From Octopus vulgaris (lineage: Eukaryota): a stretch of 64,000 nt of DNA. The notes below the pieces were generated by a model, which did not search any database, was not told the DNA's origin, and saw only the letters and a program-made list of their open reading frames with translations. The stretch is taken from the NCBI GenBank assembly GCA_951406725.2, contig OX597826.1, positions 76,074,001 through 76,138,000 on the forward strand, read 5' to 3'. This document shows, in pieces, positions 1,569 to 59,694 of the stretch (the stretch's first letter is position 1; the number at the start of each line of letters is the position of its first letter). Made by a program: the position numbers and the translations under genes.

Positions 1569-1606
1569 TCTTTCTGTGGAAGAGCATAGGCTCGAAACGT
1601 AAAAGA
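1569..1606 (+). ncRNA. Minimal hammerhead-like motif, A6U core variant
   Basis: TCTTT-CTGTGGA-A-GAGC(ATAG)GCTC-GAAA-CG-TA-AAAGA; the element ends in (TA)n about 90 nt downstream. Confidence 0.6.
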
Positions 1607-2077
1607 CTTTTTCACTTCCCCAGCATTATATAATACATCTGTTTGTTGTCTACCCACCTGCCTTCATCTTTTGTTTTTTGTGAATTCTCCCTATATATAT
1701 ATATATATATATATATATATATCAGCATCATCATTTAGCAAGGTGAGAAATATATTATCTTGCTCAGAATCAGGTGAAAGTTGGCAATGGGAAGAACAAC
1801 CAACCACAGAAAAAACCAGCCTCAACAAATTCCATCTGACCCAAAATGCAAATACGGAAAGGCTAACTTTAAATGATGATGATGGCTTATGAAAAGGAAT
1901 AAGCAAAGGGAGACTGACGTATATACCAGAATACACAAAGGGTGGAATGCTAACCAATGGGAATATATGCTGAAGAGCAAAGAAATGAGTCTAAATTTTA
2001 CATTTTCAGGAAAAAAAGAAGGCAGGATATAAGATGGAGAGAAAGAGGAAAGCGAGAGAAATATATTAAAACATCTC

Positions 2078-2240
2078 CGGAGTTGCTGTGTGGTAAGTAG
2101 CTTGCTTACCAACCACATGGTTCTGAGTTCAGTCCCACTGCGTGGCACCTTGGGTTAGTGTCTTCTACTATAAGCCTCATGCCAACCGAAGCCATGTGAA
2201 TGGATTTGGGAAACTGAAAGAAGCCCATTGTATATATATA
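2078..2240 (+). mobile_element. tRNA-derived SINE 5' part (family A)
   Basis: GGAGTTGCTGTGTGGTAAG head and GTTCAGTCCC B-box-like motif; matches the full copy at 57028-57440. Confidence 0.8.
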
Positions 2241-2734
2241 TATAAGACAAGCTCCCAATCCCCTGCCCCCCATCAGCTGAGAAGGGTACAGTATTGAAGG
2301 ATGTGAATGTATGACGGATACAGGAACTGATGCCTTGATGAAGAGGTGAATACACAGCTTCCTTATTTGCAGTATAAAAATATCTCAACTAATGTACAAG
2401 ATTTTGTGCATTTCTGGGCCTTGCAACCCTTAAAACAGAAAAGAAATTGTTACTTATTTCATCAATAAGAAAATAAATGTCATAAATTCATAGAAGAGAG
2501 GGACAATAAAAAGTTATGCCAGATATAGATGCAAAAAGAAAGTCCAACAGACACACGAGACACACATTTGCAAATAATGTGTGCTCAAATAAATAGACAA
2601 ACACCAACATGATTTGGACATATATATATATACAAAACACATGCATATATAGGTGATGCTCCAGCATGGCCGCAGTCAAAAGACTGAAACAAATAAAAGA
2701 ATAAAAGAATATGAAACATGCATGTGCATGTATA

Positions 2735-3012
2735 GACAGACAGACAGACAGATACATACATACATACAAACATACATACATGATACATACACACATACAT
2801 ACAAACACACAAACATACATACATACATACATGCATACATACATACATACGTACATCCATCCATACGTACATACATCGATACATACATACATACATACAT
2901 ACATACATACATACATACATACATACATACATACATACATACATACATACATACATACATATATATTTAGATGTACATACATACATACATAGACAGATAG
3001 ACAGATAGATAC
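2735..3012. repeat. (TACA)n/(GACA)n microsatellite
   Basis: Direct reading. Confidence 0.95.
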
Positions 3013-3220
3013 AAGTAAAAGGCAAAATATGGAAAAAGTGAGGCCATACTATTTGGAGTATAGCAAAGACAGCAAGCTGACCGTCAGCAACTAAAATGTG
3101 GACCATTTCCTGCTCTCTCTCTCTCTCTGACATCCAAACAGGCTTTCAAACCCCTCCACCAGCATAAGGGACATTCAGTATCTAGTTAGTGTTTGCCAAG
3201 GGTGAAAATTATCAGATCCA

Positions 3221-3612
3221 GCATACCTACACGATTGGGCCCCCATCGCACCCTGCTGATTTTGTTTCCTCGTAACTTTTAGAAAAATGAATATTATTTA
3301 ATGAAATTTACTATAAATATGTTTTAGATGGTGTAGATTCCGATTATATCGGAATTACTTATGAAACATTTTTTTCTGGGGCTTGGGTGAGAAGTTTCTG
3401 AAAATTCAAGCGTGTCGGTTTTTGTGTTGTGTGTCCGTAGGTACGCGTGCACCTAAAACTTTTTTTTTTTTTTTTTCCATATTAAATTCTAATATAATCG
3501 TAATCTATACACTCTGAAAGGTATGTGTAGAAAATCTCATAAGAAAATATCCATTTTTATGAAAGTCATGAGGAAACGAAGTCGGGGTGGGGCACACTTG
3601 TGTAGTTATGTC
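3221..3612. mobile_element. Palindromic MITE with about 130-bp imperfect terminal inverted repeats
   Basis: catacctacacg...gtttcctcgtaactttt...gtgtagattccgattatatcggaatt is mirrored by aattctaatataatcgtaatctatac...aaagtcatgaggaaac...gtgtagttatg. A related one-ended copy lies at about 55642-55760. Confidence 0.7.
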
Positions 3613-3729
3613 ATCAGAGCTATGGATTGCTCTTAAATTTGAGAGCAGGGAACAAGTCAATTACATCAAACCCCCTAACACTTATCTAGTAAGTTTGTTC
3701 TTTCTTCTTCTTCTTTTTAACAAACCATG

Positions 3730-56551: not shown

Positions 56552-57027
56552 ATTCCATGCTGCATCTGAGAAAGTAACAGTTCTTGATATATATGTATGT
56601 ATGTGTGTATGTATGTATGTATGCATGTATGTATGTGCATCAGGCAAAATGCTTAGAAGTATTTTATCCATCTTTATGTTCTGAGTCCAAATTCTACTGA
56701 GGTCAACTTTGCCTCTCATCCTTTTGGAATTGATAAAAGCACTACCACATGATTACTGGGAGGGAGGGGTGTCGATGTAATCAACTAGCCCTGCCCCCAA
56801 ACTTGCTGGCCTTCTGCCAAAATTTTGACACCAACATTCTTTGTATTTTTCATGTTCTGGGTTCAAATCCCACTGAAATTAATATAGATACCAGTTATGT
56901 GCTGGAGTCAAGTCAATTCTTCACAGCTCAGCCACCGAAATTTGTGGCCTTGAACCGATATTTTTCATACAACTGAGACAGTTCTACAAGAAAAAAAAGA
57001 AGACAGAAATGAAAAGAACCCAAAACA

Positions 57028-57440
57028 GGAGTGGCTGTGTGGTAAGTAGCTTGCTAACCAACCACATGGTTCTGGGTTCAGGACCCACTACGTGGCATCT
57101 TGGGCAAGTGTCTTCTGCTATAGCCCCGGGCCGACCAATGCCTTGTGAGTGGATTTGGTAGACGGAAACTGAAAGAAGCCTATCGCATATATGTAGATAT
57201 ATATATATATATATATATATATATATGTGTGTGTGTGTGTGTGTCTGTGTTTGTCCCCCTAGCATTGCTTGACAACCAATGCTGGTGTGCTTACGTCCCC
57301 GTCACTTAGCGGTTTGGCAAAAGAGACCGATAGAATAAGTACTAGGCTTACAAAGAATAAGCCCCGGGGTCGATTTGATCGACTAAAGGCGGTGCTCCAG
57401 CATGGCCGCAGTCACATGACTGAAACAAGTAAAAGAGTAG
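57028..57440 (+). mobile_element. Full-length SINE family A with internal TA/TG microsatellite
   Basis: tRNA-like head, GTTCAGGACCC, central TGGGCAAGTGTCTT and (AAGAGT)-like tail. Confidence 0.88.
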
Positions 57441-58513
57441 AGAGAGTAAGAGTATATGTGAGGAATTTGGAGAGAATTTATGTGGCTGTGTGGTAAGAAG
57501 CTCATTTCCCAACTACATGGTTCTGGGTTCATTCCCACTACACAGAACTTTGGGCAGTATCTTCTGCTCTGTGTTGACCAGTGTCTTGTGAGTGGTTTTG
57601 GTAGATGAAAACTGAAAGAAGCCCATCATGTATATATCGTATTATTTTTGTATTCATATTTGTATTTTTTTTTGTATTTATATTCGTGTAATATTGTCCG
57701 TTTTTCTGTCCTTGTTTTGTATACATTCGATCCTTTTTCTAAGAAATCTAATGCTCGTAGCTTAGTTTTTCCTTGGGGCTGGCCAGATTGGAGCAATCTC
57801 AAAATTAATCAGCCAAAATTGCAAAGATGATCCGTTCTTGACTGAAGATTAAAGGCTTCGAATGACCTGTCCGTGTTTTTTGTATCGTCTATTTGGATGT
57901 TTTGCGTTCTTGTCCCATTTTGTATTTATATATATATATATATAGCGGCGTACGTACACTTTGTTCTCTTATATATGTATGTATGTATGAATGCGTGTAT
58001 GTATGTATGAATGTGTGTGCATCCCACCACTGCTTGACAACTGATGGTGTGTTTACTTCTGTGACTTAGCAGTTTGGCAAAAGAGATCAATAGAATAGGT
58101 ACCAAACTCACACACACACACACACAGAAACACTCATGTACACATAGGCAACAGAGTTTTAGGCGGTGATGGATTCACAGCAATTGTGGTGCAACCGATG
58201 CATGATTATTGCTAATTGAAATGTGTACAAGAACATGTATGTATGTATTGTACGTATGTCCGTGAATATGTATGTATGCAAGTGTGCGTGTGTATGTAGT
58301 GAAGCATTTATATGTAAAATATACATGTGTGTGTGTGTGTGTGTGTGTGTGTGTGTACTCAATGTGTAAATACATGTGTTATGAATTAATGCATCATATT
58401 TTCCTCTTAGTTGTCATGAAGTTCAAAATTATTGTTTTATGAAATCCTTTGTTTATTGGTACATATGTATGTATGTATGTATGTGTGTATATATACATAT
58501 ATATATACATACA

Positions 58514-58703
58514 TGCTGTTAGTAAGGTGAGGGTTGGCAACGAGTACAGTGAAGAATTCCGGGTAGAGGTTGGGGTCCACCAAGGCTCAGTCCTCAGCCC
58601 CCTCCTATTTATCATAGTCCTCCAGGCAATAACGGAGGAATTCAAGACAGGATGCCCCTGGGAGCTCCTCTATGCTGATGACCTTGCTCTAATTGCTGAA
58701 TCA
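58514..58703 (+). mobile_element. Internal RTE RT fragment, nearly identical to 50160-50348
   Basis: SKVRVGNEYSEEFRVEVGVHQGSVLSPLLF...YADDLALIAES. Confidence 0.9.
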
Positions 58704-59338
58704 TATAATGGAAGGGAGGTAACCAAGATGAAAGTTCTTAGAATTAGGAATATTTAAATTTAGTATTCAAGAATGAAGTATAGTTTATATGGGGCATAAT
58801 AATTTAGGCTAGTTAGGGGTAATATTTAAAAGAAAAAAAGGGTGGGGAATTAGGTGTAGTAGAATTCTTGCAGAAATAGATATGGAAATTACCAATTCTT
58901 TAAAACTTTTGATAGATTAAGTTTACAACTTAATAATTTTATTAGATATATGGAATTTATGTAATCATCATCATCATCATCATCATCGTTTAGCGTCCGT
59001 TTTCCATGCTGGCATGGGTTGGACGGTGCAACTGGGGTCTGGGAAGCCAGAAGGCTGCACCAGGCCCAGTCTGATCTGGCAATGTTTCTACGGTTATAGT
59101 TATAGAAATTTAAAAAGATTTTATTCTACTTCAATAATATTAAACCCCCTCCCCAATAGTAAATCTAAATAACAAAGTAAAATCAGTGATAAGTAGTATC
59201 TCCATGAATAAATATCAATTACTACCATGTTTCTGTTGATGAAACTGGTCTCCCTGTCCATCTACTTACTCTCTTTGAGATGTTGGTAAATGGAATAAGT
59301 ATAAAAATGAACATTGTCTATTTAATAAAAAATTCTAT

Positions 59339-59428
59339 ATGTGGCTGAAGATTGCTCTACATTTTAAAACTGATGTAATACTTGCATTGTTTAATTAAAT
59401 GAAGTCACATGAAACGATCGTACTGCAT
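59339..59428 (+). ncRNA. Hammerhead motif with long, eroded stem II
   Basis: ATGTGG-CTGAAGA-(59 nt)-GAAA-CGATCG-TA-CTGCAT; palindrome ACGATCGT. Confidence 0.62.
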
Positions 59429-59659
59429 TACCTTTGGATATCCTTGTTGCTTATTTTGATTATAATCACCCCATTTGAATTATATGGATAATACCATACC
59501 AAATTCTGGGGCCTTTAACTTAAGTACCATATTCAACTGAAATCCAAATTTGCTTCTCTGAAAGTTTTAAGACAAATATCTGAAACGGCCACAGGTTTGT
59601 GTACTGTTGGCGATTTTTTTTCCTCTGTCTTCCCTTCTCTGGATCTTTCCTTCTCCTAT

Positions 59660-59694
59660 GTTTCCGACGAAGAGCTTTGCTCGAAACGTTAAAC
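59660..59694 (+). ncRNA. Minimal hammerhead-like motif, U4C variant (best copy)
   Basis: GTTT-CCGACGA-A-GAGC(TTT)GCTC-GAAA-CG-TT-AAAC. Confidence 0.62.

Follow-up and report, generated by a model that had tools for sequence, protein, structure and literature searches.

Hammerhead motifs in a window of the Octopus vulgaris genome as probable solo 3′ stubs of Penelope-like elements

What accounts for the hammerhead-like motifs crowded into one stretch of the Octopus vulgaris genome, and do the elements that carry them depend on self-cleavage? The stretch concerned, referred to here as the window, comprises 64,000 nucleotides of contig OX597826.1. A sequence-only reading had proposed that it holds about 16 minimal hammerhead ribozymes from many unrelated repeat families, derived from Penelope-like elements (PLEs) or retrozymes. 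The link between PLEs and hammerheads and the occurrence of many hammerheads in PLE stubs are published biology; the role of these hammerheads has been called unclear (PMC8557442).

Motifs, families and density

The proposed order of elements is present at 16/16 coordinates, twelve on the plus strand and four on the minus strand (21775, 23724, 47343, and 56501), and the count of about 16 loci stands. Beyond these sites, three further partial copies lie in the window. The features are as follows.

1569..1606, + strand: hammerhead fold, family A; A6U core, extra A after A9, CG palindrome; element ~1522-1691, then (TA)n
5904..5984, - strand: further hammerhead-bearing repeat, weak match to its 3′ part (72%, E 3e-6)
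6118..6211, + strand: hammerhead fold, family C; canonical core, long stem II, CAUAUG palindrome; old copy, ~77% to relatives
6341..6376, + strand: hammerhead fold, family A; A6U; (TA)n run on each side of the element
21775..21819, - strand: hammerhead fold, family D; A4 here, U4C in the family majority; CCAUGG palindrome
22064..22109, + strand: inverted fragment of family D that covers the 5′ part (half) of the hammerhead; likely to be the partner of 21775, absent from the sequence-only reading
22407..22453, + strand: hammerhead fold, family E; canonical core, 10-nt palindrome in the family; copy without the stem I 5′ strand
23502..23557, + strand: hammerhead fold, family F; canonical core, CAGCUG palindrome; 3′ end opposite family G, with a single (TA)n run between them
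23724..23765, - strand: hammerhead fold, family G; about half of the family U4C; Rfam Hammerhead_1 match at 33.7 bits, the only one among those listed
29796..29830, + strand: hammerhead fold, family B; U4C; diverged copy, ~72% to relatives
30476..30538, + strand: hammerhead fold, family H; canonical core; Hydra-type PLE 3′ end; element ~30371-30585
33554..33612, + strand: second, partial copy of family I, likewise absent from that reading
33852..33894, + strand: hammerhead fold, family I; canonical core; family palindrome AUCGAU, one change in this copy
35721..35778, + strand: hammerhead fold, family J; canonical core, 8-nt palindrome in the family; cut site UG in this copy, UA in the family
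47343..47388, - strand: hammerhead fold, family K; canonical core; Penelope/Poseidon-like PLE 3′ end; U16.1 changed to C in this copy
47485..47526, - strand: 3′ half of the family K tRNA-like head; B box present, A box truncated; an (AAT)n spacer joins it to the hammerhead tail 47293-47433
56187..56221, + strand: hammerhead fold, family B; U4C; G8 and palindrome decayed in this copy
56501..56551, - strand: hammerhead fold, family L; swapped G3:C8 pair, AUAU palindrome; Neptune/Nematis-like PLE 3′ end
59339..59428, + strand: hammerhead fold, family M; canonical core, long stem II, CGAUCG palindrome
59660..59694, + strand: hammerhead fold, family B; U4C; young copy, ~95% to relatives; element ~59598-59790, then (TA)n

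All 16 sites fall into 13 dispersed repeat families (A-M), for each of which a majority sequence was derived; the families are unrelated, as had been claimed, and number 13 rather than 16. Each family sample consists of the best matches to the window copy, so that shared variants may be over-counted. All 13 majorities parse as type I minimal hammerheads with at most one core departure each, and all retain G12-A15, the UH site, the stems, and the palindrome. The CUGANGA core is canonical in 8/13; the five departing families carry U4C (B, D, and about half of G), A6U (A), or G3:C8 (L). Stem sequences differ between families with pairing largely preserved, just as the sequence-only reading held: core-proximal stem I positions are paired at 51/52 positions within the majorities, through many pair types, compared with 1.78/4 across families. 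Stem III is a perfect palindrome in 11/13 families, G requiring G-U pairs and H having one unpaired central base, while the G10.1-C11.1 pair, read by eye, is found in A, B, G, H, I, J, K, and L (8/13) and is unclear in C, D, E, F, and M. Self-cleaving activity of the sites is a prediction from this fold and core.

With a strict descriptor, the window yielded one perfect-core match, where 1030 dinucleotide shuffles averaged 0.017, and four matches with at most one core mismatch, compared with 0.40. A more tolerant scorer, designed after the sites had been seen, recovered 11/16 sites at a score of at least 12, as compared with a mean of 0.05 and a maximum of 2 in 1184 block shuffles; applied to 40 regions unselected for content, it returned 28 matches where 0.29 were expected. 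The sites it misses (21775, 22411, 29796, 56187, and 59339) are decayed copies whose family majorities parse. Decay of many copies had been proposed and holds for these five, but some of the cores taken as decayed are family-wide variants. In an Rfam comparison, a single Hammerhead_1 match stood among the 150 of 216 matches (to all Rfam families) listed, at 23724-23765 and just below the cut-off of 34. That AT-rich, repeat-rich DNA produced the motifs by chance, as this near-threshold match and the post hoc scorer might suggest, has a negligible probability and is refuted by the shuffles and by the family alignments, in which majorities built from other copies outscore most window copies.

The density of one motif per 4 kb in the window had been carried over to the genome, which proved too high: in an unbiased 400-kb sample the tolerant scorer found one motif per 14-18 kb, so the window is 2.5-3 times richer than average. 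The population is nonetheless large and diverse, as had been supposed, with 74 motif clusters in 1.6 Mb of retrieved, partly anchored DNA and an extrapolated genome total of ~150,000-200,000 motifs.

Element ends and coding partners

A fixed 3′ end combined with variable 5′ truncation was measured in families A, B, K, L, G, and H, the 3′ end sitting ~50-150 nt beyond the cut site and not forming a unit-length end at the cut. Runs of (TA)5 or longer lie within 200 nt downstream of 11/16 sites compared with 12% of random positions; offsets of a few bases in four of the cut positions used leave the count unchanged. This enrichment confirms the proximity to (TA)n remarked on previously. Inverted truncated partners occur in family K, at Hydra-type loci, and likely in the family D pair of the window (21775/22064). 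One-sided terminal extensions are present in 48/117 family K arms; none of the arms begins at the predicted cut, and the 31 internal starts are spread over tail positions 14-114, with none at 84-88.

Upstream PLE coding sequence was found elsewhere in the genome for three families, H (Hydra-like), K (Poseidon-like), and L (Neptune-like). In family H, PLE pieces lie upstream on the same strand in 4/19 copies, and a relative of this family possesses an intact 708-aa ORF with a hammerhead in both flanking repeats, an arrangement observed outside the window at L227, L229, L232, and L234 and not seen for the family K coding partner. This intact relative, a unit of ~2.6 kb with a (TA)n target, encodes RWK, DKT, a CxCX5C linker, and CxxC in the nuclease; it has no Pfam match, and its placement in the Hydra clade was made by comparing motifs in the translation with the clade description. 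Among 20 family K copies picked by reverse transcriptase, the nuclease is followed by head and tail in 12, which comprise every copy with a nuclease match extending to residue 138. Long copies of family L have reverse transcriptase and GIY-YIG (PF01541, E 1e-4) upstream. The search, which covered families A-E and G-L, succeeded for H, K, and L, gave a weak 32% piece 1 kb upstream for G, and detected no partner for A, B, C, D, E, I, and J, including a ~6 kb extension of one long A and one long B copy. A reverse transcriptase piece beside one B copy was rejected as a B partner, since it lies in a single duplicated locus that belongs to a different family, one bearing a hammerhead of its own. Within the window, Hydra- and Poseidon-type queries detected no PLE ORF pieces, in agreement with the earlier statement that no autonomous Penelope ORF is visible.

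Families H, K, and L are thus 5′-truncated PLE 3′ ends (pLTRs), and the remaining ten families likely are as well. Of the two origins offered originally, that of PLE relics is supported by the 3′ ends, truncation, inversions, (TA)n, and three coding links, while that of retrozymes is not. Solo units of non-autonomous retrozymes, spread via circular RNA from tandem arrays, would be consistent with an array of seven motifs (L157; ~355-359 nt, canonical cores) elsewhere in the genome, with the ten families that have no demonstrated coding partner, and with a 2026 preprint tying animal retrozymes to pLTRs (bioRxiv 10.64898/2026.07.22.740005). Such an origin is very improbable for the 16 sites, none of which sits in a tandem array; the fixed ends past the cut and the direct continuation of H, K, and L into PLE coding sequence likewise argue against it.

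Altered cores and the family K head

Core changes extend across whole families, with U6 in 31/32 motifs of family A, C4 in 27/30 motifs of family B, and C4 again in 31/32 matches to the young Hydra-type repeat, overlapping loci included. In family L, 10/49 copies carry an unpaired G3.G8 and have differing 3′ flanks; they form no single supported clade, requiring four changes on a poorly resolved tree, and could have moved in trans or been reshuffled by conversion. Across 29 clusters, the 3:8 pair gave way to different complementary pairs (U3-A8 in two cases, G3:C8 in one). Together with the canonical cores of 8/13 families, this suggests that catalysis was under selection for at least part of the time. 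Because families with U4C, A6U, G3:C8, and unpaired G3.G8 have spread while keeping their stems, cleavage is likely not required for PLE copying. No literature report was found of family-wide U4C (including young intact elements), of A6U, or of G3:C8 with a spreading G3.G8 subgroup; Lunse 2017 may contain such variants.

Quite unlikely, in comparison, is that elements of the same origin need cleavage, their altered cores being active variants rescued by dimers and an element protein. Such a requirement would account for the catalytic and structural features kept in 13/13 majorities and for the mostly complementary replacement of the 3:8 pair; U4C leaves sufficient activity in a viroid (PMC3088659), and cleavage of a PLE hammerhead was protein-assisted (PMC11167929). 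It conflicts with the independent insertions of the G3.G8 subgroup, the low activity reported after A6 changes (PMC3088659), and the lack of family K arms beginning at the cut. In Poseidon PAc of Anolis, C3G abolishes cleavage and the double mutant C3G/G8C recovers it in part; insertion in vitro continued with such mutants, and cleavage was found unnecessary for it (PMC11167929).

In family K, the 3′ end includes a tRNA-like A/B-box head, located after the stop codon of the nuclease and ahead of the hammerhead, and it is here that the majority of short copies start. Scored against the generally known A and B box consensus sequences, 18/30 heads have an exact A box and 17/30 an exact B box, at tRNA spacing. 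Heads begin within -12..+7 of one point in 23/30 cases and never between -13 and -50, and 14/18 arms in a separate count start at the head, as do short copies without inversion (L248, L251, and L252). T4 runs are found in 3/25 family K copies versus 125/125 in five other families, and in 2/23 full units of head plus tail. The head has no Rfam match and none by default ARAGORN in 8 loci; relaxed ARAGORN, run without a control, called a tRNA in 21 of the 29 cases listed, with mixed anticodons. It matches one phage tRNA at 87% over 44 nt (E 1e-3) and folds no better than shuffles. Fragmented, unstranded RNA reads of a related species form no pile of ends on family K, and 75-78% of them continue into unlike flanks. 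On the evidence of its boxes and start points, the head is likely an internal Pol III promoter giving short SINE-like copies; no literature report was found of a PLE family with such a head in its 3′ end.

A serious if somewhat unlikely alternative for this family is a dead head, a tRNA-derived insertion into the PLE 3′ UTR, with short copies starting at it owing to a small hairpin immediately ahead that stalls or folds back the reverse transcriptase. A short palindrome does precede the head in long copies, the head is the end point of 2/4 inverted arms adjacent to long copies, as a copying hot spot would give, and the related-species reads revealed no transcript ends. A dead insert explains less readily why both boxes are retained at tRNA spacing, why T4 is avoided along head and tail, and why inversion-free short copies start at the head.

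Proposed mechanism and comparison with known systems

Taken together, it is probable that the sites are solo 3′ stubs of 13 PLE-derived type I hammerhead families, for which cutting is dispensable and of which K bears a Pol III head. From the observed anatomy, family membership, coding links, and end distributions, we infer the steps of cleavage, transcription, and mobilisation. The GIY-YIG nuclease of the element would nick AT-rich DNA, and the reverse transcriptase would begin just 3′ of the hammerhead and usually stop within 150-400 nt, so that almost all insertions would leave a single hammerhead without coding sequence. Through the palindromic stem III, two copies on one tandem RNA could pair into a dimer, the form in which canonical families probably cut, slowly and with the aid of protein; solo genomic copies are likely inert. 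The family K head would drive a short Pol III RNA, yielding SINE-like copies moved by PLE enzymes.

A broader reading is put forward tentatively, namely that the PLE hammerhead is shifting from ribozyme to structural signal, leaving a natural mutational series in ~10^5 copies, and that capture of a tRNA-type Pol III promoter in the 3′ repeat of K spawned a SINE moved by Penelope enzymes and not by a LINE. As canonical and altered cores are spread over dozens of families in this genome, which also has a young intact element with an ORF, selection on cutting versus fold is directly testable. The Pol III head, if true, would provide a route for a SINE to arise from, and depend on, a PLE, and ~10^5 motifs bear on the annotation of octopus repeats and intronic RNA.

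Metazoan PLE pLTR hammerheads (Cervera and de la Pena 2014, PMC4209133) share with those described here the type I topology, short palindromic stem III, frequent extra nucleotide after A9, U3-A8 variant, and many unrelated families per genome, mostly as solo truncated copies. They number ~2,000-9,000 per genome as compared with the octopus extrapolation of 1.5-2 x 10^5, obtained with another, more tolerant scorer; the G3:C8, U4C, and A6U families were not found in the available part of that account. With the Hydra clade of C-terminal EN+ PLEs (Craig et al. 2021, PMC8557442), the family H relative shares RWK, DKT, CxCX5C, CxxC, the ~2.6 kb unit, hammerheads in both repeats, inverted partners, and (TA)n targets, a likeness by description and not by tree; the young octopus family has U4C and not the canonical core. 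Poseidon PAc of Anolis (Frangieh et al. 2024, PMC11167929) likewise has a pLTR hammerhead and AT-rich targets, and its reverse transcription starts inside the RNA at two sites, giving a one-sided tail as observed here. G3:C8, a laboratory mutant in that element, is the natural majority in octopus family L, alongside the G3.G8 subgroup.

The Sm-alpha/Sj-alpha repeats of Schistosoma (via review PMC6765202) similarly combine a Pol III-type promoter and a hammerhead in a short repeat, but are described as tandem units freed by cleavage, whereas family K is dispersed, with the promoter 5′ of the hammerhead in single copies. Unlike those repeats, family K displays PLE inversions and the tail, and the same head occurs in the 3′ end of the coding element. 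Animal non-LTR retrozymes (PMC7229834; bioRxiv 10.64898/2026.07.22.740005) are also short, non-coding, pLTR-related type I hammerhead units; they are defined by tandem units and circular RNA, whereas the 16 octopus sites are solo and end past the cut.

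Abundance, fold and family structure of the motifs

The element order described in the sequence-only reading (stem I, a CUGANGA-like core, stem II, GAAA, stem III, UH and the return strand of stem I) is present at all 16 sites noted earlier, four of them on the minus strand. These sites are probably the 3′ stubs of Penelope-like elements (PLEs) that conserve a predicted hammerhead fold; self-cleavage is likely weak, and copying likely does not depend on it. The earlier observation is real and was for the most part interpreted correctly. With a strict descriptor, one perfect-core match was detected in the window against 0.017 in 1030 shuffles, and four matches against 0.40 in shuffles when one core mismatch was allowed. 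A tolerant scorer returned 11 window matches with a score of at least 12, all among the 16 sites, versus 0.05 on average over 1184 shuffles. As this scorer had been devised after the sites were known, it was rerun unaltered on 40 10-kb regions picked at round coordinates, yielding 28 matches in 14 of the 40 regions (seven of them from a single tandem array) versus 0.29 in 150 shuffled sets. The excess over shuffled sequence, proposed as a check, was found in the window with both the strict and the tolerant scan, and in the unbiased regions with the tolerant one.

Extrapolation from the 40 unbiased regions gives 154,000–196,000 scoring motifs in the genome (2.8 Gb in 227 contigs), i.e., one per 14–18 kb, with Poisson ranges of 97,000–283,000 and a true range wider owing to clustering. 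The very large population suggested earlier is thus borne out, but one motif per 4 kb does not hold as a genome rate, the window being 2.5–3 times richer than average. Rfam is nearly insensitive to these motifs, with a single one of the 16 sites among the matches listed and six matches for 73 scored candidates genome-wide.

The many unrelated families reported before are indeed present, although the 16 sites reduce to 13 of them: A (1569, 6341), B (29796, 56187, 59660) and eleven families with one site each. Genome searches with 11 sites gave 40–42 matches each (40 scored candidates per search), the first-look candidates, from 49 (35721) to 3214 (47343), not being copy numbers. Sites 23502 (family F) and 59339 (family M) were matched solely within loci collected for other purposes, and their alignments contain the window copy itself as well as some rows of poor quality. 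A type I hammerhead parse succeeds for every family majority (13/13); the five sites missed by the tolerant scorer are decayed members of such families. Stem pairing across families, another suggested check, was also observed: core-adjacent positions of stem I are paired in 51 of 52 cases, with A-U, U-A, C-G and G-C all occurring, a figure that is partly built in because the parse requires stems, and pairing amounts to 1.78 of 4 with strands mixed between families. The palindromic centre of longer stem III segments is free of any parse requirement, and a perfect stem III palindrome is found in 11 of the 13 family majorities.

Probable Penelope-like origin and coding partners

Copies share one 3′ end and vary in 5′ extent. 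The reported proximity to (TA)n was reproduced, with (TA)5 or longer within 200 nt downstream of 11 of the 16 sites versus 12% by chance. Searches of the window with Hydra- and Poseidon-type queries found no PLE coding piece, consistent with the earlier remark that no autonomous Penelope ORF is visible there. The reverse transcriptase (RT) and GIY-YIG partners that had been proposed as worth seeking were found elsewhere, as same-strand coding sequence upstream in families H, K and L (sites 30476, 47343 and 56501).

In family H, PLE coding pieces lie upstream on the same strand in 4 of 19 copies, and a search from one of these pieces uncovered young elements whose open frames span 717 codons. 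An intact Hydra-type element (L227) encodes a 708-aa product bearing RWK, DKT, CxCX5C and CxxC, which fits the Hydra clade description; each of its two flanking repeats holds a related hammerhead, an inverted partner is also present, and identity to the window H copy is ~75% over 99–111 nt. The intact protein gave no Pfam match and no relative of solved structure by sequence; it has 844 database relatives, and the best 120 of the 844 are all without a name. The frames upstream in family K comprise an RT (PF00078) and a nuclease of GIY-YIG type that lacks a zinc-finger linker, motifs from which the partner can be classed as Penelope/Poseidon-like; no intact ORF was found among the 150 matches listed, where open frames did not exceed 572 aa. 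Upstream of long copies of family L lie RT sequence, a linker of the form CX3CxxC and a GIY-YIG domain, a partner that appears Neptune- or Nematis-like by clade description. Another contig of the same genome (G000:C16, L383–L401), ~2% of the genome, holds 32 of the 42 top matches to the inner portion of family L; short L copies occur on all chromosomes. Family G has just a weak coding piece upstream, and none was found on searching families A, B, C, D, E, I and J. An RT piece adjoining a B copy was rejected as parent of family B after the locus was followed, and a 91-aa nuclease remnant used as a protein query had no match among longer proteins.

Of the two origins offered previously, PLE relics or retrozymes, the former is upheld and the latter rejected for these 16 sites, none of which is part of a tandem array, so that the retrozyme definition fails. 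A separate locus (L157:2300-4550) holds seven units of ~355–359 nt with a canonical hammerhead in each and one inversion inside the array, an arrangement that looks retrozyme-like.

Other features of the window are as follows.

7552–7995, minus strand: coding exon 1 of a GIPC PDZ gene (97% identity with an Octopus sinensis protein)
48797–51271, plus strand: LINE-type RT, 5′-truncated, open 824-aa frame (PF00078, E 2e-31)
39886–40266, plus strand: mariner transposase fragment (HTH_48)
58155–58288, plus strand: U4 snRNA-like sequence (42.9 bits, cut-off 46)
51319–51964, 54930–55589 and 21251–21594: a minisatellite of 61 bp and tandem stretches of a 184-bp repeat, neither of them related to the hammerhead sites

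No further GIPC exon lies within the window, and sites 1569, 6116 and 6341 are therefore probably antisense in the first GIPC intron. The LINE RT probably belongs to the RTE clade, and the U4-like sequence is probably a pseudogene.

The tRNA-like head of family K

In family K, an (AAT)n spacer joins the hammerhead tail to an upstream head of 76 nt, whose A/B-box-like motifs lie at tRNA spacing. A head-only query found a tail piece within 600 nt in 23 of 30 loci (three partial, one 571 nt off) and none in five. The starts of 23 of 30 K copies fall at −12 to +7 of one point, with zero between −13 and −50, while seven extend 51–900 nt farther, into the PLE coding end. When the search began at 20 RT matches, all 12 copies with a nuclease match reaching residue 138 had head and tail 3′ of the nuclease; the head therefore belongs to the 3′ end of the coding element itself. 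T4 is avoided on the sense strand, occurring in 3 of 25 K copies versus 125/125 in five other families. The head likely acts as an internal Pol III promoter; points against this reading are the absence of an Rfam match, a default ARAGORN match or a stable cloverleaf, and the inverted arms beside long K copies, two of four of which stop at the head as well.

No RNA run on record was listed as containing the K stretch. Three unstranded RNA runs from one study, under another species label, covered both strands of one K copy, most reads continuing into unlike flanks; no pile of RNA ends was seen on K in these runs, which are uninformative for cleavage or strand. Among 117 K arms reaching the 3′ end, 31 begin inside the tail, evenly spread, and none of these starts falls two bases or less from the predicted cut. 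K copies thus show no apparent preference for cleaved RNA as template. Just upstream of the K hammerhead (~47390–47426, minus strand), a second hairpin, with a degenerate core and GAAA on its 3′ side, is conserved across family K and may be the relic of an older hammerhead.

Altered catalytic cores and published hammerheads

The canonical core is retained in the majority sequence of eight families. U4C is the majority state in B and D and occurs in about half of G, A6U is that of A, and G3:C8 that of L. Patterns anchored on stems only gave U6 in 31 of 32 A-type and C4 in 27 of 30 B-type motifs; of 32 matches of the young Hydra-type repeat, with overlapping loci kept in the count, 31 carry C4. 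These samples are mainly best matches to window copies. Among the 22 independent loci from the unbiased regions, three are B-type, two have U3-A8, and the A-type and L-type are represented once each. The most canonical-looking site (23724–23765, minus strand) is from family G. C4-G5 being a CpG, decay can yield a canonical-looking core in this family.

Among 49 L copies, 38 are G3:C8, ten G3.G8 and one A3.C8. The G3.G8 arms, nine of which came from the long-copy search, differ in their 3′ flanks and hence represent separate insertions; the family L tree is too poorly resolved to order the two states in time. At one locus (L399), two opposed L arms have G and C, respectively, at core position 8. 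Families with a U3-A8 core are found at three loci (L166, L195, L231), one with a family L-like stem II, so position 3:8 may have had three paired states among relatives.

A literature search, which was not exhaustive, could not find the core variants or the family K head in print. It yielded no SINE tied to PLEs and no natural G3-C8 hammerhead, although earlier work (Lunse et al. 2017) may list such cores. For one Octopus species, a repeat annotation of 2026 describes PLEs and many unclassified SINEs, with hammerheads unmentioned in the part of the article concerned (PMC13282606). The nearest published case to the K head comes from Schistosoma, a Pol III hammerhead repeat (review PMC6765202). 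According to sections of the respective reports, U3-A8 is a known natural variant (PMC3088659, PMC4209133), and U4C is known from a viroid, with much lower in vitro activity (PMC3088659). In Anolis PAc, C3G abolishes cleavage and C3G/G8C partly restores it; protein is needed for cleavage, and mutants nonetheless insert (passages of PMC11167929). For the giant squid, 235 Rfam hammerhead loci are given in a portion of PMC6962438. The window is a dense local case of the already published association between PLEs and hammerheads.
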